From: Escherichia coli
Lineage (GTDB): Bacteria > Pseudomonadota > Gammaproteobacteria > Enterobacterales > Enterobacteriaceae
Strand: one strand, 5' to 3'
Length of the DNA stretch: 64,000 nucleotides
NCBI RefSeq assembly: GCF_030013205.1
Contig: NZ_CP122648.1
Below, one piece after another: positions 45,473-56,922 of this stretch. A model generated the notes under the pieces. The model had not been told where the DNA came from, searched no databases, and saw nothing but the letters and a program-made list of their open reading frames with translations. A program made the position numbers and the translations under genes. The first letter of the stretch is position 1. Each line of letters starts with the position of its first letter.

Positions 45473-47752
45473 ATGGATGACCAGTTAAAACAAAGTGCAC
45501 TTGATTTCCATGAATTTCCAGTTCCAGGGAAAATCCAGGTTTCTCCAACCAAGCCTCTGGCAACGCAGCGCGATCTGGCGCTGGCCTACTCACCAGGCGT
45601 TGCCGCACCTTGTCTTGAAATCGAAAAAGACCCGTTAAAAGCCTACAAATATACCGCGCGTGGTAACCTGGTGGCGGTGATCTCTAACGGTACGGCAGTG
45701 CTGGGGTTAGGCAACATTGGCGCGCTGGCAGGCAAACCGGTGATGGAAGGCAAGGGCGTTCTGTTTAAGAAATTCGCCGGGATTGATGTATTTGACATTG
45801 AAGTTGATGAACTCGACCCGGACAAATTTATTGAAGTCGTCGCCGCGCTTGAACCGACCTTCGGCGGCATCAACCTCGAAGACATTAAAGCGCCAGAATG
45901 TTTCTATATTGAACAGAAACTGCGCGAGCGGATGAATATTCCGGTATTCCACGACGATCAGCACGGCACGGCAATCATCAGCACTGCCGCCATCCTCAAC
46001 GGTTTGCGCGTGGTGGAGAAAAACATCTCTGACGTGCGAATGGTGGTTTCCGGCGCGGGTGCCGCAGCAATCGCCTGTATGAACCTGCTGGTAGCGCTGG
46101 GTCTGCAAAAACATAACATCGTGGTTTGCGATTCAAAAGGCGTTATCTATCAGGGCCGTGAGCCAAACATGGCGGAAACCAAAGCCGCATATGCGGTGGT
46201 GGATGACGGCAAACGTACCCTCGATGATGTGATTGAAGGCGCGGATATTTTCCTGGGATGTTCCGGCCCGAAAGTGCTGACCCAGGAAATGGTGAAGAAA
46301 ATGGCCCGTGCGCCAATGATCCTGGCGCTGGCGAACCCGGAACCGGAAATTCTGCCGCCGCTGGCGAAAGAAGTGCGTCCGGATGCCATCATCTGTACCG
46401 GCCGTTCCGACTACCCGAACCAGGTGAACAACGTTCTTTGCTTCCCGTTCATCTTCCGTGGCGCGCTGGACGTTGGCGCAACCGCCATCAACGAAGAGAT
46501 GAAACTGGCGGCGGTACGCGCGATTGCAGAACTGGCCCATGCGGAACAGAGTGAAGTGGTGGCTTCAGCTTATGGCGATCAGGATCTGAGCTTTGGTCCG
46601 GAATACATCATTCCAAAACCGTTTGATCCGCGCTTGATCGTTAAGATCGCTCCTGCGGTCGCTAAAGCAGCGATGGAGTCCGGCGTGGCGACGCGTCCGA
46701 TTGCTGATTTCGACGTCTACATCGACAAGCTGACGGAGTTCGTTTACAAAACCAACCTGTTTATGAAGCCGATTTTTTCCCAGGCTCGCAAAGCGCCGAA
46801 GCGCGTCGTTCTGCCGGAAGGTGAAGAGGCGCGCGTTCTGCATGCCACTCAGGAACTGGTAACGCTGGGGCTGGCGAAACCGATCCTTATCGGTCGTCCG
46901 AATGTGATCGAAATGCGCATTCAGAAACTGGGCTTGCAGATCAAAGCGGGCGTTGATTTTGAGATCGTCAATAACGAATCCGATCCGCGCTTTAAGGAGT
47001 ACTGGACCGAATACTTCCAGATCATGAAGCGTCGCGGTGTCACTCAGGAACAGGCGCAGCGTGCATTGATCAGTAACCCGACAGTGATCGGCGCAATCAT
47101 GGTTCAGCGTGGCGAAGCCGATGCAATGATCTGCGGTACGGTGGGCGATTATCATGAACATTTTAGCGTGGTGAAAAATGTCTTTGGTTATCGCGATGGC
47201 GTTCACACCGCAGGTGCCATGAACGCGCTGCTGCTGCCGAGTGGTAACACCTTTATTGCCGATACCTACGTCAATGACGAACCAGACGCAGAAGAGCTGG
47301 CGGAGATCACCTTGATGGCGGCAGAAACTGTTCGTCGTTTTGGTATTGAGCCGCGTGTGGCTCTGTTGTCGCACTCCAACTTTGGTTCTTCTGACTGCCC
47401 GTCGTCGAGCAAAATGCGTCAGGCGCTGGAACTGGTCAGGGAACGTGCACCAGAACTGATGATTGATGGTGAAATGCACGGCGATGCAGCGCTGGTGGAA
47501 GCGATTCGCAATGACCGTATGCCGGACAGCCCTTTGAAAGGTTCCGCTAATATTCTGGTGATGCCGAACATGGAAGCTGCCCGCATTAGTTACAACTTAT
47601 TGCGCGTTTCCAGCTCGGAAGGTGTGACTGTCGGCCCGGTGCTGATGGGTGTGGCGAAACCGGTTCACGTGTTAACGCCGATCGCATCGGTACGTCGTAT
47701 CGTCAACATGGTGGCGCTGGCTGTGGTTGAAGCGCAAACCCAACCGCTGTAA
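45473..47752 (+). CDS. maeB: NADP-dependent malic enzyme
   Basis: 759 aa; malic enzyme domain plus C-terminal phosphotransacetylase-like domain. Confidence 0.95.
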
Positions 47753-47769
47753 TTCATTCTTAACTCTCA

Positions 47770-47804
47770 CGCTTACCCTGAATATTCAGGGTAAGCGGTT
47801 TTCC
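47770..47804 (+). terminator. rho-independent terminator after maeB
   Basis: Hairpin cgcttaccctga-atat-tcagggtaagcg followed by gttttcc. Confidence 0.7.
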
Positions 47805-48044
47805 TGAAATATATTAGTAAAGCTTATTACTGAGTTTACGAATAATAAAAAAAGCAGTATATGAAATATCTCGATATTATTTTATTTATATTCATGCGTC
47901 GCATATGAAAGTTTATTCATAACAGTAAATATCTCTCCATTCTTAGTGATCTACCTCACCTTTTAAACGTACTTGCCGAATTTTGTTATTTACTCTGACG
48001 AAAAATTGTCACGATACACGCAAGTTTTTCACAGGCGGCGACTC

Positions 48045-48380
48045 ATGGATAAAGAACGCATCATTCAGGAATTTGTGCCCGGTAAACAAGTCACGCTGGC
48101 GCATCTCATCGCGCATCCCGGCGAGGAACTGGCGAAGAAAATCGGCGTTCCGGATGCTGGCGCAATCGGCATTATGACGCTAACTCCAGGCGAAACGGCG
48201 ATGATCGCCGGTGATTTAGCGCTGAAAGCCGCTGATGTGCATATCGGTTTTCTCGACCGCTTCAGCGGTGCATTGGTGATTTATGGCTCGGTGGGCGCAG
48301 TAGAAGAAGCATTATCACAAACCGTCAGCGGTTTAGGTCGCTTATTAAATTATACGCTTTGTGAAATGACCAAAAGTTAA
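48045..48380 (+). CDS. eutS: BMC shell protein EutS
   Basis: 111 aa starting [22 protein letters not shown]; first gene of eut operon. Confidence 0.9.
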
Positions 48381-48392
48381 TACGAGGCATTC

Positions 48393-48872
48393 ATGAAACG
48401 AATTGCGTTTGTGGGTACCGTCGGGGCAGGAAAAACAACGTTATTTAATGCGTTGCAGGGGAATTATACCCTCGCCAGAAAAACACAGGCCGTGGAATTT
48501 AATGATAAAGGCGATATTGATACGCCGGGTGAATATTTTAGCCATCCCCGCTGGTATCACGCCTTAATTACCACGCTACAGGATGTGGACATGCTGATCT
48601 ATGTCCACGGCGCGAATGACCCGGAAAGTCGGTTGCCTGCCGGGTTGCTGGATATTGGCGTCAGCAAACGGCAAATCGCCGTCATCAGTAAAACGGACAT
48701 GCCAGATGCTGACGTCGCCGCAACGCGAAAGTTATTGCTTGAGACGGGCTTCGAAGAGCCGATTTTCGAGCTAAACAGCCACGACCCGCAAAGCGTGCAG
48801 CAACTGGTGGATTATCTGGCATCTCTCACCAAACAGGAGGAAGCAGGTGAAAAAACTCATCACAGCGAATGA
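48393..48872 (+). CDS. eutP: ethanolamine utilisation GTPase/acetate-kinase-like protein EutP
   Basis: 159 aa, P-loop GTVGAGKTT. Confidence 0.9.
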   Translation: MKRIAFVGTVGAGKTTLFNALQGNYTLARKTQAVEFNDKGDIDTPGEYFSHPRWYHALITTLQDVDMLIYVHGANDPESRLPAGLLDIGVSKRQIAVISKTDMPDADVAATRKLLLETGFEEPIFELNSHDPQSVQQLVDYLASLTKQEEAGEKTHHSE

Positions 48873-49548
48873 TATTCGCGAAGCACACGCGCGCGGCGAA
48901 CAGGCAATGTCCGTGGTTCTGCGCGCCAGCATTATTACTCCGGAAGCCCGTGAAGTGGCGGATCTGTTGGGTTTTACCATCACCGAATGTGATGAATCGA
49001 CTGCGGTAACGACGTCCGTTCCCGCCAGCGTGCCAGCCGATAAAACCGAAAGCCAGCGCATCCGCGAAACCATCATCGCCCAGCTACCGGAAGGCCAGTT
49101 TACCGAAAGTCTGGTCGCGCAGCTGATGGAAAAAGTGATGAAGGAAAAACAGTTACTGGAGCAGGGTGCAATGCAGCCGAGTTTCAAATCGGTGACCGGC
49201 AAAGGCGGCATCAAAGTTATTGATGGCAGCAGCGTCAAGTTTGGTCGTTTCGACGGCGCACAGCCACACTGCGTCGGATTAACGGATCTGGTCACCGGAG
49301 ACGACGGCAGCAGCATGGCCGCTGGTTTTATGCAGTGGGAGAACGCCTTCTTCCCGTGGACCCTGAACTATGACGAAATCGATATGGTACTGGAAGGGGA
49401 ACTGCACGTTCGCCACGAAGGCGAAACCATGATCGCCAAAGCAGGCGACGTGATGTTTATCCCGAAAGGCTCCAGCATCGAATTTGGTACGACATCCAGC
49501 GTGAAATTCCTGTATGTCGCCTGGCCGGCTAACTGGCAATCCCTATGA
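48847..49548 (+). CDS. eutQ: ethanolamine utilisation cupin-like protein EutQ
   Basis: 233 aa; overlaps eutP 3' end. Confidence 0.88.
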   Translation: MKKLITANDIREAHARGEQAMSVVLRASIITPEAREVADLLGFTITECDESTAVTTSVPASVPADKTESQRIRETIIAQLPEGQFTESLVAQLMEKVMKEKQLLEQGAMQPSFKSVTGKGGIKVIDGSSVKFGRFDGAQPHCVGLTDLVTGDDGSSMAAGFMQWENAFFPWTLNYDEIDMVLEGELHVRHEGETMIAKAGDVMFIPKGSSIEFGTTSSVKFLYVAWPANWQSL

Positions 49549-50348
49549 AAGATTTCATCACCGAAGCATGGCTAAGAGCGAATCATACGCTTAGCGAAGG
49601 CGCAGAGATCCATCTCCCTGCGGACAGTCGCCTGACGCCCTCTGCCCGGGAGTTGCTGGAAAGCCGCCATCTGCGCATCAAGTTTATTGACGAGCAGGGC
49701 CGCCTGTTTGTTGACGATGAACAGCAGCAGCCGCAGCCCGTTCATGGGCTGACCAGTAGCGATGAACATCCGCAGGCGTGCTGCGAACTGTGCCGCCAGC
49801 CGGTGGCGAAAAAGCCGGATACGCTGACTCACCTGTCGGCGGAAAAAATGGTTGCCAAAAGCGATCCGCGCCTGGCTTTTCGCGCTGTTCTCGACAGCAC
49901 CATTGCGCTGGCAGTGTGGCTGCAAATTGAACTGGCGGAACCGTGGCAGCCGTGGCTGGCGGATATCCGTTCGCGTCTTGGCAACATTATGCGTGCCGAT
50001 GCGCTGGGGGAACCGCTGGCCTGCCAGGCGATTGTCGGGCTTTCTGACGAAGATCTGCATCGGCTTTCTCACCAGCCGCTGCGCTATCTTGGTCACGATC
50101 ATCTGGTGCCGGAAGCCAGCCACGGGCGCGATGCGGCGTTACTCAATCTGCTACGCACCAAAGTGCGGGAAACCGAAACCGTAGCAGCGCAGGTATTTAT
50201 CACCCGCAGCTTTGAAGTATTACGCCTGGACATCTTGCAGGCGCTGAACCGCCTTTCCAGCACGGTTTACGTGATGATGATCCTGAGCGTAGCGAAACAA
50301 CCGCTAACGGTGAAGCAGATCCAACAACGACTGGGGGAAACGCAATGA
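49545..50348 (+). CDS. eutT: corrinoid (cobalamin) adenosyltransferase EutT
   Basis: 267 aa; ATGA overlap with eutQ. Confidence 0.9.
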
Positions 50349-51361
50349 TTATTGAACGTTGTCGTGAACTGGCGTTGCGAGCGCCCGCCAGAGTGGTATT
50401 TCCGGATGCGTTAGATCAACGTGTGCTGAAAGCTGCGCAATATTTATATCAACAAGGTCTGGCAACGCCCATTCTGGTCGCTAATCCGTTTGAACTTCGT
50501 CAGTTTGCGCTCAGTCATGGCGTAGCGATGGACGGGCTACAGGTGATTGATCCGCATGGCAACCTCGCAATGCGGGAAGAATTTGCTCATCGCTGGCTGG
50601 CCCGCGCGGGCGAAAAAACGCCGCCGGATGCGCTGGAAAAACTTACCGACCCGCTGATGTTCGCCGCAGCAATGGTCAGCGCCGGTAAAGCGGATGTCTG
50701 TATCGCGGGCAACCTCTCTTCCACGGCGAATGTGCTGCGTGCCGGATTACGCATTATCGGCTTGCAGCCAGGCTGTAAAACGCTCTCATCCATTTTCCTG
50801 ATGCTGCCACAGTACAGCGGTCCGGCGTTGGGTTTTGCCGATTGCAGCGTGGTGCCACAGCCGACGGCGGCGCAGTTGGCGGATATCGCGCTTGCCAGCG
50901 CCGAAACCTGGCGCGCCATCACCGGAGAAGAGCCGCGCGTGGCGATGTTGTCGTTTTCCAGTAACGGCAGCGCCCGTCACCCCTGCGTTGCCAACGTCCA
51001 GCAGGCGACAGAAATGGTCCGTGAGCGCGCGCCGCAGTTGGTAGTCGATGGCGAGTTGCAGTTTGACGCCGCCTTCGTGCCGGAAGTGGCGGCGCAAAAA
51101 GCGCCTGCCAGCCCGCTACAAGGCAAGGCCAATGTGATGGTTTTTCCGTCGCTGGAAGCCGGAAATATTGGATACAAAATCGCACAACGACTCGGCGGAT
51201 ATCGTGCCGTCGGGCCATTGATACAAGGACTTGCCGCGCCGATGCACGATCTCTCTCGTGGTTGTAGCGTGCAGGAAATTATCGAGCTGGCGCTGGTGGC
51301 AGCTGTGCCGCGTCAGACAGAAGTGAACCGCGAAAGCAGTTTACAAACACTGGTTGAATGA
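50345..51361 (+). CDS. eutD: phosphotransacetylase EutD
   Basis: 338 aa PTA family. Confidence 0.92.
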
Positions 51362-51399
51362 ACGGTCCCGTTCTGGACCCTGATAAAGAGGAAAGCACA

Positions 51400-51693
51400 A
51401 TGGAAGCATTAGGAATGATCGAAACCCGGGGCCTGGTTGCACTGATTGAGGCTTCTGACGCGATGGTGAAAGCTGCGCGCGTCAAACTGGTTGGTGTTAA
51501 GCAGATTGGCGGCGGCCTGTGTACTGCCATGGTTCGTGGTGATGTTGCAGCCTGTAAAGCCGCGACCGACGCAGGTGCCGCCGCGGCACAGCGTATCGGC
51601 GAGCTGGTATCTGTACACGTTATCCCGCGTCCGCACGGCGACCTGGAAGAAGTCTTCCCGATCGGCCTGAAAGGCGATAGCAGCAACCTGTAA
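51400..51693 (+). CDS. eutM: BMC-H shell protein EutM
   Basis: 97 aa [28 protein letters not shown]; canonical BMC domain. Confidence 0.93.
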
Positions 51694-51799
51694 TCACCCT
51701 GTGTGACGTCGATTCGGGCGTCACGCTCTCTCCTTTTTCATTTTACCTTCTGCGGAGGGTAGGGGGAGCTTTTACCTGAAATACGCCACGGAGGCGGGT

Positions 51800-52087
51800 A
51801 TGAAACTGGCAGTCGTCACAGGACAAATTGTTTGTACCGTACGCCATCACGGACTGGCGCATGACAAATTGCTGATGGTGGAAATGATTGATCCACAAGG
51901 TAATCCTGACGGGCAATGCGCCGTCGCCATCGACAATATTGGCGCGGGAACCGGGGAGTGGGTGTTGCTGGTGAGTGGCAGTTCTGCCCGCCAGGCGCAT
52001 AAAAGCGAAACGTCACCGGTCGATCTGTGCGTGATTGGCATCGTCGATGAGGTGGTGTCTGGCGGTCAGGTAATTTTCCACAAATAA
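51800..52087 (+). CDS. eutN: BMC vertex protein EutN
   Basis: 95 aa MKLAVVTGQIVCTVRHHGL; EutN/CcmL family. Confidence 0.92.
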   Translation: MKLAVVTGQIVCTVRHHGLAHDKLLMVEMIDPQGNPDGQCAVAIDNIGAGTGEWVLLVSGSSARQAHKSETSPVDLCVIGIVDEVVSGGQVIFHK

Positions 52088-52098
52088 GGCAGAACATC

Positions 52099-53502
52099 AT
52101 GAATCAACAGGATATTGAACAGGTGGTGAAAGCGGTACTGCTGAAAATGCAAAGCAGTGACACGCCGCCCGCCGCCGTTCATGAGATGGGCGTTTTCGCG
52201 TCCCTGGATGACGCCGTTGCGGCAGCCAAAATTGCCCAGCAAGGGTTAAAAAGCGTGGCAATGCGCCAGTTAGCCATTGCTGCCATTCGTGAAGCAGGCG
52301 AAAAACACGCCAGAGATTTAGCGGAACTTGCCGTCAGTGAAACCGGCATGGGCCGCGTCGAAGATAAATTTGCCAAAAACGTCGCTCAGGCGCGCGGCAC
52401 ACCAGGCGTTGAGTGCCTCTCACCACAGGTGCTGACCGGTGACAACGGCCTGACTTTAATTGAAAACGCGCCCTGGGGCGTGGTGGCTTCGGTGACGCCT
52501 TCCACTAACCCGGCGGCAACCGTAATTAACAACGCCATCAGCCTGATTGCCGCGGGCAACAGCGTCATTTTTGCCCCGCATCCGGCGGCGAAAAAAGTCT
52601 CCCAGCGGGCGATCACGCTGCTCAACCAGGCGATTGTTGCCGCAGGCGGGCCGGAAAACTTACTGGTTACTGTGGCCAATCCGGATATCGAAACCGCGCA
52701 ACGTTTGTTCAAGTTCCCGGGTATCGGCCTGCTGGTGGTGACCGGCGGCGAAGCGGTAGTGGAAGCGGCGCGTAAACACACCAATAAACGTCTGATTGCC
52801 GCAGGTGCTGGCAACCCGCCGGTAGTGGTGGATGAAACCGCTGACCTCGCCCGTGCAGCTCAGTCCATCGTCAAAGGTGCTTCTTTCGATAACAACATCA
52901 TTTGTGCCGACGAAAAGGTACTGATTGTTGTTGATAGCGTAGCCGATGAACTGATGCGTCTGATGGAAGGCCAGCACGCGGTGAAACTGACCGCAGAGCA
53001 GGCGCAGCAGCTACAACCGGTGTTGCTGAAAAATATCGACGAGCGCGGAAAAGGCACCGTCAACCGTGACTGGGTTGGTCGCGATGCGGCGAAAATCGCG
53101 GCGGCAATCGGCCTTAAAGTTCCGGAACAAACGCGACTGCTGTTTGTAGAAACCACCGCAGAACATCCGTTTGCTGTGACTGAACTGATGATGCCGGTGC
53201 TGCCCGTCGTGCGCGTCGCCAACGTGGCGGATGCCATTGCGCTGGCGGTGAAACTGGAAGGCGGTTGCCATCACACGGCGGCAATGCACTCGCGCAACAT
53301 CGAAAACATGAACCAGATGGCGAATGCCATTGATACCAGCATTTTCGTTAAGAACGGACCGTGTATTGCCGGGCTGGGGCTGGGCGGGGAAGGCTGGACC
53401 ACCATGACCATCACCACGCCAACCGGTGAAGGGGTAACCAGCGCGCGGACGTTTGTCCGTCTGCGTCGCTGTGTATTAGTCGATGCGTTTCGCATTGTTT
53501 AA
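52099..53502 (+). CDS. eutE: CoA-acylating acetaldehyde dehydrogenase EutE
   Basis: 467 aa aldehyde dehydrogenase family. Confidence 0.93.
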   Translation: MNQQDIEQVVKAVLLKMQSSDTPPAAVHEMGVFASLDDAVAAAKIAQQGLKSVAMRQLAIAAIREAGEKHARDLAELAVSETGMGRVEDKFAKNVAQARGTPGVECLSPQVLTGDNGLTLIENAPWGVVASVTPSTNPAATVINNAISLIAAGNSVIFAPHPAAKKVSQRAITLLNQAIVAAGGPENLLVTVANPDIETAQRLFKFPGIGLLVVTGGEAVVEAARKHTNKRLIAAGAGNPPVVVDETADLARAAQSIVKGASFDNNIICADEKVLIVVDSVADELMRLMEGQHAVKLTAEQAQQLQPVLLKNIDERGKGTVNRDWVGRDAAKIAAAIGLKVPEQTRLLFVETTAEHPFAVTELMMPVLPVVRVANVADAIALAVKLEGGCHHTAAMHSRNIENMNQMANAIDTSIFVKNGPCIAGLGLGGEGWTTMTITTPTGEGVTSARTFVRLRRCVLVDAFRIV

Positions 53503-53512
53503 GGAGTAACAG

Positions 53513-54349
53513 ATGGCGCACGACGAACAATGGCTCACCCCACGTCTGCACATAGCAGCAACGCTGTGTAACCAGACGCCTGCCGCGACGGAATCTCCGC
53601 TGTGGCTGGGGGTGGATCTGGGCACCTGCGATGTGGTGTCGATGGTTGTTGACCGCGACGGTCAGCCGGTGGCGGTATGCCTCGACTGGGCTGATGTGGT
53701 CCGCGACGGCATCGTCTGGGATTTCTTCGGTGCGGTCACCATTGTTCGTCGCCATCTCGACACCCTCGAGCAGCAATTCGGTCGCCGTTTTAGCCATGCG
53801 GCGACCTCTTTTCCTCCAGGTACGGACCCGCGTATTTCCATCAACGTGCTGGAGTCTGCCGGACTGGAAGTGAGTCATGTGCTGGATGAGCCAACCGCAG
53901 TCGCGGATCTGCTGCAACTGGACAACGCCGGTGTAGTGGATATCGGCGGTGGCACTACTGGTATTGCCATCGTGAAAAAGGGCAAGGTGACTTACTCGGC
54001 AGATGAAGCCACCGGCGGACATCATATCTCTCTGACTCTCGCCGGAAATCGCCGTATTTCGCTGGAAGAGGCAGAGCAGTACAAACGCGGTCACGGTGAC
54101 GAGATTTGGCCTGCGGTGAAACCGGTGTACGAAAAAATGGCGGACATTGTCGCCCGGCATATTGAAGGGCAGGGCATTACTGATTTATGGCTGGCGGGCG
54201 GCTCTTGTATGCAACCGGGCGTGGCGGAACTGTTTCGCAAACAATTCCCGGCGTTACAGGTGCATCTACCGCAGCACAGTTTGTTTATGACCCCGCTGGC
54301 GATCGCCAGTAGCGGGCGAGAGAAAGCGGAGGGGATCTATGCAAAATGA
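53513..54349 (+). CDS. eutJ: chaperone-like (actin/Hsp70 fold) protein EutJ
   Basis: 278 aa. Confidence 0.9.
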   Translation: MAHDEQWLTPRLHIAATLCNQTPAATESPLWLGVDLGTCDVVSMVVDRDGQPVAVCLDWADVVRDGIVWDFFGAVTIVRRHLDTLEQQFGRRFSHAATSFPPGTDPRISINVLESAGLEVSHVLDEPTAVADLLQLDNAGVVDIGGGTTGIAIVKKGKVTYSADEATGGHHISLTLAGNRRISLEEAEQYKRGHGDEIWPAVKPVYEKMADIVARHIEGQGITDLWLAGGSCMQPGVAELFRKQFPALQVHLPQHSLFMTPLAIASSGREKAEGIYAK

Positions 54350-55526
54350 ATTGCAGACCGCGCTCTTTCAGGCGTTCGATACCCTGAATCTGCAACGGGT
54401 AAAAACATTTAGCGTTCCACCGGTGACGCTTTGCGGTCCGGGCGCGGTGAGCAGTTGCGGACAGCAAGCGCAAACGCGTGGGCTGAAACATCTGTTCGTG
54501 ATGGCAGATAGCTTTTTGCATCAGGCAGGGATGACCGCCGGGCTGACGCGTAGCCTGGCCGTTAAAGGTATCGCCATGACGCTCTGGCCATGTCCGGTGG
54601 GCGAACCATGCATCACCGACGTGTGTGCAGCCGTGGCGCAGTTGCGTGAATCAGGCTGTGACGGGGTGATTGCGTTTGGCGGCGGCTCGGTGCTGGATGC
54701 AGCAAAAGCCGTGGCGTTGCTGGTGACGAACCCGGATAGCACGCTGGCAGAGATGTCAGAAACCAGCGTTCTGCAACCGCGCCTGCCGTTGATTGCCATT
54801 CCAACTACCGCCGGAACCGGTTCTGAAACCACCAACGTAACGGTGATTATCGACGCGGTGAGCGGGCGCAAGCAGGTGTTAGCCCACGCCTCGCTGATGC
54901 CGGATGTGGCGATTCTCGACGCTGCGCTGACCGAAGGCGTGCCGTCGCATGTCACGGCGATGACCGGTATCGACGCGTTAACCCATGCTATTGAAGCGTA
55001 CAGCGCGCTGAACGCCACACCGTTTACCGACAGTCTGGCGATTGGTGCCATTGCGATGATTGGCAAATCGCTGCCGAAAGCGGTGGGCTACGGTCACGAC
55101 CTTGCCGCCCGCGAGAGCATGTTGCTGGCTTCATGTATGGCGGGAATGGCGTTTTCCAGTGCGGGGCTTGGGTTGTGCCACGCGATGGCGCATCAGCCAG
55201 GGGCGGCGCTGCATATTCCGCACGGTCTGGCGAACGCCATGTTGCTGCCAACGGTGATGGAATTTAACCGGATGGTTTGTCGTGATCGGTTTAGTCAGAT
55301 TGGTCGGGCACTGCGAACTAAAAAATCCGACGATCGTGACGCTATTAACGCGGTAAGTGAGCTGATTGCGGAAGTCGGGATTGGTAAACGACTGGGCGAT
55401 GTTGGTGCAACATCTGCGCATTACGGCGCATGGGCGCAGGCCGCGCTGGAAGATATTTGTCTGCGCAGCAACCCGCGTACCGCCAGCCTGGAGCAGATTG
55501 TCGGCTTGTACGCAGCGGCGCAATAA
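54339..55526 (+). CDS. eutG: iron-containing alcohol dehydrogenase EutG
   Basis: 395 aa Fe-ADH family. Confidence 0.92.
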   Translation: MQNELQTALFQAFDTLNLQRVKTFSVPPVTLCGPGAVSSCGQQAQTRGLKHLFVMADSFLHQAGMTAGLTRSLAVKGIAMTLWPCPVGEPCITDVCAAVAQLRESGCDGVIAFGGGSVLDAAKAVALLVTNPDSTLAEMSETSVLQPRLPLIAIPTTAGTGSETTNVTVIIDAVSGRKQVLAHASLMPDVAILDAALTEGVPSHVTAMTGIDALTHAIEAYSALNATPFTDSLAIGAIAMIGKSLPKAVGYGHDLAARESMLLASCMAGMAFSSAGLGLCHAMAHQPGAALHIPHGLANAMLLPTVMEFNRMVCRDRFSQIGRALRTKKSDDRDAINAVSELIAEVGIGKRLGDVGATSAHYGAWAQAALEDICLRSNPRTASLEQIVGLYAAAQ

Positions 55527-55539
55527 AAGTGTACGGACA

Positions 55540-55650
55540 GTCCCCTCGCCCCTTTGGGGAGAGGGTTAGGGTGAGGGGAACAGAGTCGCGCCGGTGCAAA
55601 CAATTACCCTCACCCCGGCCCCTCGGCTTCCAGAGTGAGGGAAAAACCCA
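55540..55650. repeat. GC-rich palindromic repeat (copy 2) plus inverted partial copy, in the eutG-eutH spacer
   Basis: gtcccctcgcccctttggggagagggttagggtgaggggaaca (1 mismatch to copy 1) then ...ttaccctcaccccggcccctcggcttccagagtgagggaaaaaccc. Confidence 0.7.
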
Positions 55651-55695
55651 CTTTCAGCATTGGCAATAAATAACAACTAACAGGGAGTAAAGGCG

Positions 55696-56922
55696 ATGGG
55701 AATTAACGAAATCATCATGTACATCATGATGTTCTTTATGCTGATAGCTGCCGTAGACAGGATCCTGTCGCAGTTCGGCGGTTCTGCTCGTTTCCTCGGT
55801 AAGTTCGGTAAAAGTATCGAAGGATCCGGCGGTCAGTTCGAAGAAGGCTTTATGGCAATGGGCGCACTGGGCCTGGCGATGGTCGGTATGACCGCGCTGG
55901 CACCGGTACTGGCCCACGTACTCGGACCGGTGATTATCCCGGTTTACGAAATGCTCGGCGCAAACCCGTCAATGTTCGCCGGAACACTGCTGGCGTGCGA
56001 TATGGGCGGCTTCTTCCTCGCCAAAGAGCTGGCGGGCGGCGACGTAGCAGCGTGGCTATACTCTGGGTTAATTCTCGGGTCGATGATGGGGCCAACGATT
56101 GTGTTTTCCATTCCGGTGGCGCTCGGCATTATCGAACCTTCTGACCGTCGTTATCTGGCGCTCGGCGTGCTGGCGGGCATTGTGACCATTCCGATTGGCT
56201 GTATTGCCGGTGGTCTGGTGGCTATGTATTCCGGTGTGCAGATCAACGGTCAGCCAGTGGAATTCACCTTTGCCCTGATCCTGATGAACATGATCCCGGT
56301 ACTTATCGTCGCGGTACTGGTGGCGCTGGGGCTGAAATTCATCCCGGAAAAAATGATCAACGGCTTCCAGATCTTCGCCAAATTCCTCGTTGCATTGATC
56401 ACCCTCGGTCTTGCCGCTGCGGTAGTGAAATTCCTGCTCGGTTGGGAACTGATCCCCGGTCTGGATCCGATCTTCATGGCTCCAGGCGACAAACCCGGTG
56501 AAGTGATGCGCGCCATTGAAGTTATCGGTTCTATCTCCTGTGTTCTGTTAGGGGCGTACCCGATGGTATTGCTGCTGACCCGCTGGTTTGAAAAACCGCT
56601 GATGAGCGTCGGTAAAGTGCTGAATATGAACAATATCGCGGCAGCTGGCATGGTGGCAACGCTTGCCAACAACATCCCAATGTTTGGCATGATGAAGCAG
56701 ATGGATACCCGCGGCAAAGTCATCAACTGCGCCTTCGCCGTTTCCGCTGCTTTCGCCCTGGGTGACCACTTAGGCTTCGCCGCTGCCAACATGAACGCCA
56801 TGATTTTCCCGATGATTGTCGGCAAGTTGATCGGCGGCGTAACGGCGATTGGCGTGGCGATGATGCTGGTGCCAAAAGAAGACGCGACCGCGGCCAAAAC
56901 CGAAGCGGAGGCACAATCGTGA
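55696..56922 (+). CDS. eutH: ethanolamine permease EutH
   Basis: 408 aa polytopic membrane protein. Confidence 0.92.
   Translation: MGINEIIMYIMMFFMLIAAVDRILSQFGGSARFLGKFGKSIEGSGGQFEEGFMAMGALGLAMVGMTALAPVLAHVLGPVIIPVYEMLGANPSMFAGTLLACDMGGFFLAKELAGGDVAAWLYSGLILGSMMGPTIVFSIPVALGIIEPSDRRYLALGVLAGIVTIPIGCIAGGLVAMYSGVQINGQPVEFTFALILMNMIPVLIVAVLVALGLKFIPEKMINGFQIFAKFLVALITLGLAAAVVKFLLGWELIPGLDPIFMAPGDKPGEVMRAIEVIGSISCVLLGAYPMVLLLTRWFEKPLMSVGKVLNMNNIAAAGMVATLANNIPMFGMMKQMDTRGKVINCAFAVSAAFALGDHLGFAAANMNAMIFPMIVGKLIGGVTAIGVAMMLVPKEDATAAKTEAEAQS

Follow-up and report, generated by a model that had tools for sequence, protein, structure and literature searches.

A conserved RNA structure in the eutM-eutN spacer of the Escherichia coli ethanolamine utilization operon

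Genes and features of the eutM-eutN junction

The window analyzed here (the whole stretch of 64,000 nucleotides of E. coli DNA) contains the chromosomal eut (ethanolamine utilization) operon on its plus strand. A 743-base region covering eutM and eutN matched 5408 of 5426 complete E. coli genomes with 95 to 100% identity, and both genes are annotated in RefSeq. The eutM stop codon (TAA, 51691-51693) and the eutN ATG at 51800 enclose a spacer of exactly the extent given in a preliminary description of this sequence (Table 1). The two genes are also 106 nt apart in K-12, where the spacer is without any annotated feature. Junctions between eut genes are overlaps or gaps of 9 to 20 nt, except for D-M (38 nt), K-R (45 nt), M-N (106 nt), and G-H (169 nt). 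The tight spacing that the preliminary description ascribed to most eut genes therefore held in outline, but M-N is not the sole large gap; it is the second largest in the operon, after G-H. The value of 38 nt for the D-M spacer applies only to the shorter form of eutM. Translation could also start at ATG 51358 (111 aa) instead of the K-12 annotated ATG 51400 (97 aa, after AGAGGAAAG), and a published table for strain LF82 gives eutM as 335 bp, matching the longer form (PMC6379400).

Table 1. Features of the eutM-eutN junction (window coordinates)
Feature	Position	Strand	Description	Basis
eutM	51400..51693	+	97 aa major hexameric shell protein (K-12 annotated start)	ORF list and RefSeq (identical E. 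coli DNA, K-12)
eutM-eutN intercistronic spacer	51694..51799	+	106 nt, single-copy in E. coli	
Hairpin 1	51701..51726	+	10-bp stem GUGUGACGUC / GGCGUCACGC, two U.G pairs, 6-nt loop	Fold energy
G-free pyrimidine-rich tract CUCUCUCCUUUUUCAUUUUACCUUCU	51726..51751	+	26 nt	Sequence and fold
Hairpin 2	51728..51768	+	-17.3 kcal/mol, z -2.4	Covariation
A/U-rich linker CUUUUACCUGAAAUAC	51769..51784	+	Predicted single-stranded, low pairing probability	
eutN Shine-Dalgarno (SD) GGAGG	51790..51794	+	5 nt before ATG, CGCC/GGCG flanks	
eutN	51800..52087	+	95 aa pentameric vertex protein	ORF list and RefSeq

A scan of positions 47000-56000 with the Rfam 15 covariance models (E <= 10) gave no match in 51694-51799. 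A small ORF or leader peptide in the spacer was rejected, there being no plus-strand ORF of at least 20 aa. Two minus-strand ORFs at the spacer were also rejected; they read the strand opposite eutM and eutN, and the reading frame is broken among relatives by indels in the loop of hairpin 1. The literature searched on eutM and eutN yielded no paper on the spacer or its hairpins.

Fold and conservation of the spacer

Hairpin 1 begins 7 nt past the eutM stop codon, and its core is GUGACG/CGUCAC (51703-51708 and 51719-51724). The preliminary description had recognized this core as gtgacgtcgattcgggcgtcac and placed it at 51705..51726; the string exists, but its true position is 2 nt to the left, at 51703..51724. 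The RNA fold prediction proposed there as a check confirmed the hairpin and enlarged it to a 10-bp stem with G.U pairs, a G+C-rich stem-loop in which six of the 10 pairs are G-C. Significance of folding was assessed against 200 dinucleotide shuffles, none of which folded as well as hairpin 1 (-17.4 kcal/mol, z = -4.28). The second stem-loop was absent from the preliminary description. Its lower stem joins 51728-51734 to 51762-51768, its upper stem joins 51744-51750 to 51755-51761 around a 4-nt UGCG loop, a 9-nt bulge (51735-51743) lies on the 5' side, and the 3' arm is GGAGGGUAGGGGGAG. The T-rich tract said to follow the first hairpin is present (51726..51744), but it is no free tail, since hairpin 2 uses it as its 5' arm and 9-nt bulge.

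Taken together, the two hairpins gave z -4.5, again with none of 200 shuffles as stable. Folding of both strands gave -43 kcal/mol for the sense strand against -31.8 kcal/mol for the antisense strand, owing to the G.U pairs; several of these lie in hairpin 2, which consequently forms on the sense strand only. That the sense strand folds far better, with many G.U pairs, points to RNA-level structure on the eut mRNA. A DNA palindrome for a dimeric regulator was rejected on the same grounds, the G.U pairs making the structure specific to sense RNA, and because the half-site spacing ranges from 4 to 20 nt. Two further helices, one closing the spacer start against the region before the ATG and the other pairing UACCU with GGGUA, were discarded; they have low probability and are broken in Citrobacter spacers with GCGCGT.

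Relatives were sampled by scanning one genome per species with EutN, which gave 48 loci, 42 of them with adjacent eutM and eutN. A spacer of 52 to 211 nt separates the genes in all 42 of these proteobacterial relatives. It is more structured than its dinucleotide shuffles in 41 (z -1.7 to -6.3), the exception being locus L046 (z -0.1), and the first helix of at least 5 bp starts 0 to 24 nt (median 9) past the eutM stop. Three loci (L019, L033, and L044) lie on contigs of 269 to 466 bp in assemblies labeled Gemelliphila, Prolixibacteraceae, and Caballeronia; their EutN is 87 to 100% identical to that of E. coli, and they most likely represent enterobacterial contamination of those assemblies.

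By sequence, the relatives' spacers form three classes. Class A combines both hairpins with the linker and the SD and is found in Escherichia, Klebsiella spallanzanii, the Citrobacter freundii group, and some further Citrobacter. Buttiauxella, Entomohabitans, and Yokenella make up class C, which has hairpin 1 with other sequence, including the motif TACCTGAA except in Yokenella. Class B, found in Salmonella, other Klebsiella, Citrobacter koseri, Citrobacter amalonaticus, Pseudocitrobacter, and others, has REP/BIME-type palindromes instead. The Salmonella spacer matches each E. coli genome at 7 unannotated places (median) and is therefore a dispersed repeat; the corresponding median for the E. 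coli spacer is 1. In C. amalonaticus S646 and C. koseri (L015 and L018), the first ~25 nt past the eutM stop contain ACGTCGGATCG/ACGTCTGATCG, which look like hairpin 1 of E. coli in its 5' arm and loop (ACGTCGATTCG); REPs come next. Judging from this resemblance, the post-stop sequence may be a decayed remnant of hairpin 1 left after REP insertion.

Conservation was quantified by comparing E. coli with 12 class A spacers from Citrobacter and Klebsiella. Identity was 0.95 in the stems and 0.13 in the loop of hairpin 1, 0.88 in the stems and 0.70 in the bulge of hairpin 2, 0.92 in the SD region, and 99% in the linker, although the linker is unpaired. Fourfold-degenerate sites of eutM and eutN, used for comparison, were 57 to 68% identical. 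The stem core of hairpin 1 is invariant in five genera and carries a compensatory change in Yokenella (ATGACG/CGTCAT), so that six genera in all preserve the stem, by conservation or by compensation; it always starts 5 to 9 nt past the stop codon. Pairs beside the core vary by genus (G-C, C-G, U.G, or A-U), the seventh pair is U.G, C-G, or U-A, and the loop ranges from 4 to 20 nt across relatives with wholly different sequence. In the alignment of hairpin 2, 98.8% of cells are paired, and three pairs (nine cells) have changed on both sides, with AU to GC and CG to UA replacements in the upper stem and a CG to GC replacement at the base. The hairpin 2 pairing surpassed all 500 column shuffles, both in paired cells and in covariation score, and all slid registers. 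Only about six independent lineages are represented, and the covariation evidence for the hairpins is therefore rated as moderate.

The spacer is found, once per genome (median 1 place), in 5407 of 5426 E. coli genomes. At 41 of 60 evenly spaced ranks of the E. coli match list, it was 100% identical over 136 nt. Among the variants fetched, two fall in loops (51751 T>C and 51741 T>G) and one (51718 G>A) converts a U.G pair of hairpin 1 to U-A; 51733 C>A (O157:H7 among others) and 51766 G>C each disrupt one pairing of the hairpin 2 lower stem. In E. coli strain 90-1 (NZ_CP050047.1, L057 1594-2870), an IS911-family element lies in the spacer at window position ~51771, just after hairpin 2 and between GGGGGAGCTT and TTTACCTGAAAT; this insertion should be polar on eutN and the downstream genes.

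Directly 3' of the major shell gene, there is a real, selected RNA structure that is conserved and unannotated. The alternative is that the spacer has no function of its own and is a tolerated gap that gathers hairpins or REPs, its conservation reflecting low divergence or hitch-hiking. REPs do insert preferentially into intergenic gaps, one strain tolerates IS911, two variants that break hairpin 2 pairs segregate in E. coli, and few independent lineages underlie the covariation. Against a functionless gap stand stems and a linker that are 88 to 99% identical, above the fourfold sites, beside a hairpin 1 loop at 13%. It is likewise at odds with the compensatory changes, with retention of the gap in every relative with adjacent genes while other eut junctions are tight, and with the near-universal presence and frequent complete identity of the spacer in E. 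coli. This alternative is considered improbable.

The core of the linker (UACCUGAA) also occurs in Buttiauxella and Entomohabitans. At the boundary between hairpin 2 and the linker, the sequence GC|UUU (51768-51772) fits the motif RN|WUU, at which RNase E cuts unpaired RNA (PMC5927463). An 8-nt complement to the linker is found within the eutN codons for GQV (52066-52073). It is lost in Citrobacter L023 and L024 and in Buttiauxella while the linker is kept, and this long-range pairing was therefore taken as chance. Elsewhere in the window, the tail after the maeB terminator hairpin (GTTTTCCTGAAATAT, 47770-47812) is nearly identical to the linker that follows hairpin 2 (CTTTTACCTGAAATAC); the two align with one gap and 13 matches. 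Both segments lie directly 3' of a stable hairpin, and a rough estimate of the probability of such a likeness arising by chance in the window is about 0.02.

Local partition-function folding identified the eutN ribosome-binding region as the least accessible among 17 eut genes. The predicted opening energy is 6.8 kcal/mol for the eutN SD and 10.2 kcal/mol for the whole site, compared with 1.4 and 4.2 kcal/mol for eutM and 1.8 kcal/mol for the eutE SD. The predicted partners of the eutN SD are a CGCC/GGCG mini-hairpin or eutN codons 12-21. At related loci, the eutN site is less accessible than that of eutM in 38 of 38 cases and than that of eutE in 37 of 38, with any spacer class; because the genomes are related rather than independent and the SD is G-rich, this ranking is only suggestive. 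The sequence CGGAGG occurs twice, at 51754-51759 and 51789-51794, and the second copy can lie within the CGCC/GGCG mini-hairpin with a probability of 0.36.

These conserved elements, namely the GUGACG/CGUCAC stem, the linker UUUUACCUGAAAU, and the two CGGAGG motifs (one in the small hairpin loop over the eutN SD), could be sites for a trans-acting regulator of eutN translation or processing, with CsrA, Hfq/ProQ, an sRNA, or a specific RNase as candidates. In Salmonella, effects of CsrA on the expression of eut and pdu have been reported. A trans-acting factor would suit a linker that is so highly conserved though unpaired and a stem core that is invariant against a background of fourfold sites with 43 to 68% identity, as well as the GGA presented in the mini-hairpin loop and again at 51755-51757. 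However, every GGAGG-type SD contains GGA, and since the eutN SD is itself GGAGG, the CsrA-like motifs are not specific. Lineages of the REP type are without both hairpins and the linker and still keep the operon, the Rfam search returned no match, and the sole long-range partner of the linker is not conserved. Control by a trans-acting factor was thus regarded as scarcely likely.

Published expression levels and transcription termination

Published data were used to compare expression across the junction. In the proteome of E. coli K-12 on ethanolamine and B12, the relative values were EutQ 100, EutM 96, EutL 39, EutB 37, EutE 27, EutC 24, EutS 11, EutD 10, EutK 8, EutG 7, EutP 7, and EutN 1 (PMC11334477). 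The ratio of EutM to EutN protein is near 100:1 in E. coli, from adjacent genes on one mRNA (PMC11334477). Transcript levels (RPKM) in induced cells of strain LF82, given in operon order, were S 76, P 166, Q 192, T 83, D 357, M 177, N 62, E 149, J 147, G 168, H 514, A 223, B 358, and C 286; uninduced values were D 108, M 55, N 5, E 14, J 13, G 35, and H 106 (PMC6379400).

A drop in RNA after eutM had been predicted, and these values contain one, from 177 to 62 RPKM in induced and from 55 to 5 in uninduced cells (PMC6379400). The corresponding eutM excess is 2.9-fold and 11-fold, values taken from one table and involving a short gene, eutN. Under both conditions, eutN RNA is below that of both neighbors, eutM and eutE. 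The accompanying proposal that the block eutSPQTDM is overexpressed relative to all downstream genes did not agree with the data, as induced eutE, eutJ, and eutG (149, 147, and 168 RPKM) are near eutM and the genes from eutH to eutC are higher. The proposal also failed at the protein level, where the upstream products EutS, EutP, and EutD (11, 7, and 10) can be set against EutE, EutB, and EutL (27, 37, and 39) from downstream. Because abundance is not uniformly higher upstream than downstream, any stabilization must be local, between eutM and eutN. The depression of eutN below both neighbors, with distal genes not depressed as a block, argues against both overexpression of the block and an efficient terminator.

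The spacer had been described as a weak terminator or a stabilizing 3' structure. The second of these fits better, and the first is weakened by a poor and unconserved U tail, although a weak terminator is the main rival to the barrier and insulator reading developed below. In that rival, one or both hairpins would be partial intrinsic (Rho-independent) terminators that end some transcripts after eutM. A generic consensus scan flagged 51701-51726, but it found 25 sites against 21.4 +/- 4.5 in shuffles; as the count is not above that in shuffles, the hit has no weight by itself. In a TransTermHP-style scoring of tails, hairpin 1 (-3.15) and hairpin 2 (-3.11) equaled the hairpin that ends maeB (-3.16), and they are among the most T-rich 5% of window positions. 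Compared with an ideal tail (-7.15), both are nevertheless poor, with 4 U in the first 8 nt (tails UCUCUCCUUUUU and CUUUUACC for hairpins 1 and 2), and the first uninterrupted U run begins 8 nt past the extended stem of hairpin 1.

In Buttiauxella, hairpin 1 runs directly into UUUCUUUAA, and UUUU after hairpin 2 is invariant in the spacers of Escherichia, Citrobacter, and K. spallanzanii, but no U tract follows the hairpin in Yokenella, Entomohabitans, or any REP-type lineage; it is the hairpin that is conserved, not the tail. Uninduced RNA falls about 4-fold from eutM to eutE, as partial termination would predict, but induced eutE, eutJ, and eutG RNA amounts to 83 to 95% of that of eutM, and a terminator could not place eutN below eutE. 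A ribosome terminating 7 nt upstream would also overlap the 5' arm of hairpin 1. On balance, partial intrinsic termination is judged possible but rather unlikely. Among published maps of transcript ends, the term-seq supplement of Adams et al. 2021, for which the operon was uninduced, has no sense-strand 3' end for eutM, only an antisense end, and no eut entry was found in the SMRT-Cappable-seq supplement.

Termination by Rho was assessed separately. The G-free pyrimidine tract (51726-51751) could be a Rho loading site causing Rho-dependent polarity on eutN and the downstream genes when translation is poor. It is a C/U-rich run of 26 nt inside an untranslated stretch of 106 nt that precedes a poorly initiated gene, and REP/BIME elements, which occupy the equivalent site in other genera, have been cited as transcriptional attenuators (PMC12306157). 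Against this, rut sites are longer than the tract, most of the tract is paired within hairpin 2, and the downstream genes are well expressed in the induced operon. A role for Rho is considered highly improbable.

The G-H spacer, the one gap wider than M-N, was also inspected. It occupies 55527-55695 (169 nt; 216 nt in K-12) and contains a dispersed repeat, palindromic and G/C-rich (GGGTGAGGG...CCCTCACCC), for which the median number of places per E. coli genome is 17; the version in the window occurs in only 303 of 5426 genomes. The rise of about 3-fold in RPKM from eutG to eutH hints at an internal promoter or a stabilizer in this spacer.

Proposed role of the spacer and comparison with known systems

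The favored, though tentative, reading is that the spacer acts in cis as an RNA module of the polycistronic eut mRNA, an exonuclease barrier combined with a translational insulator that parts the expression of eutM from that of eutN. Its layout would serve this purpose, with two adjacent stem-loops right after the eutM stop codon, then the unpaired A/U-rich linker, then the eutN ribosome-binding site. In the first step, the structured gap of roughly 100 nt would keep ribosomes leaving the heavily translated eutM from reinitiating at eutN. With reinitiation blocked, eutN would have to start from its own partly occluded site and would be translated poorly. Endonucleolytic decay would then begin in the poorly translated segment of linker and eutN, plausibly through RNase E at GC|UUU after hairpin 2. 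By analogy with the malE-malF REP and with protective 3' structures (Dar and Sorek 2018), the hairpins would stop 3'-to-5' exonucleases. The upstream RNA containing eutM would survive, and eutN RNA would be depleted. The net outcome would be much EutM and very little EutN, as needed for a closed microcompartment shell, which has many hexamers and only 12 pentamers. Deletion of eutN yields elongated shells (PMC12487888).

The observed and computed basis for the barrier and insulator proposal comprises the structures, their conservation and covariation, their replacement by REPs elsewhere, and the occlusion predicted for the eutN site. Decay starting in eutN and halted upstream of it would be expected to make eutN RNA the lowest of the three (eutM, eutN, and eutE), as in the published values. 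Poor translation of eutN is suggested by predicted structure and by iBAQ values for a small protein, and it must be weighed against a near-ideal GGAGG at 5-nt spacing. The two E. coli variants that break hairpin 2 pairs (51733 C>A and 51766 G>C) are counterpoints to a barrier. The 99% conservation of the unpaired linker exceeds what a generic barrier needs and counts against the barrier model as well.

A more elaborate possibility, which is speculative and distinctly unlikely, is that the spacer serves as a sequence-specific device dedicated to setting shell stoichiometry. Here, the ribosome terminating on eutM would melt the base of hairpin 1, and a specific nuclease or RNA-binding factor would read the invariant stem and linker, so that processing and eutN translation would be tuned to translation of eutM; REPs would be a convergent replacement elsewhere.

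For a barrier and insulator, the closest known kind of element is an intercistronic mRNA stabilizer. The malE-malF intercistronic REP is reportedly such a stabilizer (Newbury et al. in 1987). About 12% of E. coli operons have been found to carry protective 3' structures at their boundaries, and the stabilized genes have more ribosomes (Dar and Sorek 2018; PMC5927463). The eut hairpins share with these elements their stability and their location at the 3' boundary of the most needed cistron, followed by a cistron that, in the case of eutN, is lower in the published RPKM values and is predicted to be less translated. Like protective 3' structures, they are conserved in relatives and adjoin an unpaired stretch with an RNase E-type motif. 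They differ from the malE-malF type in being two hairpins of unique sequence, not REP, and in that only the next gene (eutN) is depleted rather than the whole distal operon; the eut case is known from sequence and published levels.

REP hairpins act as attenuators and ribonuclease barriers and are able to stall ribosomes near stop codons (PMC12306157; barrier role also in PMC5927463). The eut hairpins are likewise near a stop codon, and REP-type palindromes hold the same site in Salmonella, most Klebsiella, C. koseri, C. amalonaticus, and Pseudocitrobacter. The E. coli spacer itself was rejected as a REP/BIME because it is single-copy and contains no REP consensus, making it an analogue and not a member. 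A further parallel is provided by the hairpins of Rhodobacter capsulatus pufBA-LMX (PMC5927463), which are also intercistronic, follow genes for abundant structural subunits, and are associated with an excess of these over rarer partners from one operon; sequence, organism, and operon are unrelated to eut, and the comparison is by analogy alone. With intrinsic terminators, the spacer shares G+C-rich stem-loops followed by a pyrimidine- or U-rich stretch and a tail score equal to that of the maeB terminator. Unlike in terminators, its U tracts are short or interrupted and unconserved across lineages, and downstream RNA is not cut as termination requires.

The eut loci of Firmicutes have EutV/ANTAR sites consisting of two hairpins with hexanucleotide loops that overlap a terminator (PMC5821096). 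The E. coli spacer is similar in having two hairpins in a eut locus ahead of a downstream gene. Assignment as an ANTAR (EutV) dual-hairpin site was rejected, as the loops are of 6 and 4 nt in E. coli and the hairpin 1 loop varies from 4 to 20 nt in relatives; in addition, and unlike the ANTAR loci, the E. coli operon is of the EutR type.

Within-operon control by hairpins has not previously been described for the eut operon in the literature searched, although control of this kind is itself familiar. Because the probable mechanism is already familiar, the finding adds to known within-operon control and leaves the accepted view unaltered. No explanation was found in the same literature for how the ratio of ~100 EutM per EutN is set, and the conserved hairpin module at the eutM-eutN junction offers a concrete, mutable handle on shell stoichiometry. 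It is also relevant for moving eutM-eutN cassettes into synthetic shells, which can be done with or without the native spacer.

The antisense end in the Adams et al. 2021 term-seq supplement is a low-count RNA 3' end opposite the 3' part of eutM, at window position ~51633 on the minus strand (K-12 2572217, plus strand). A -10-like sequence, TAAAAT, is found on the minus strand at 51746..51741, inside the spacer, and a short antisense RNA across hairpin 1 is possible.
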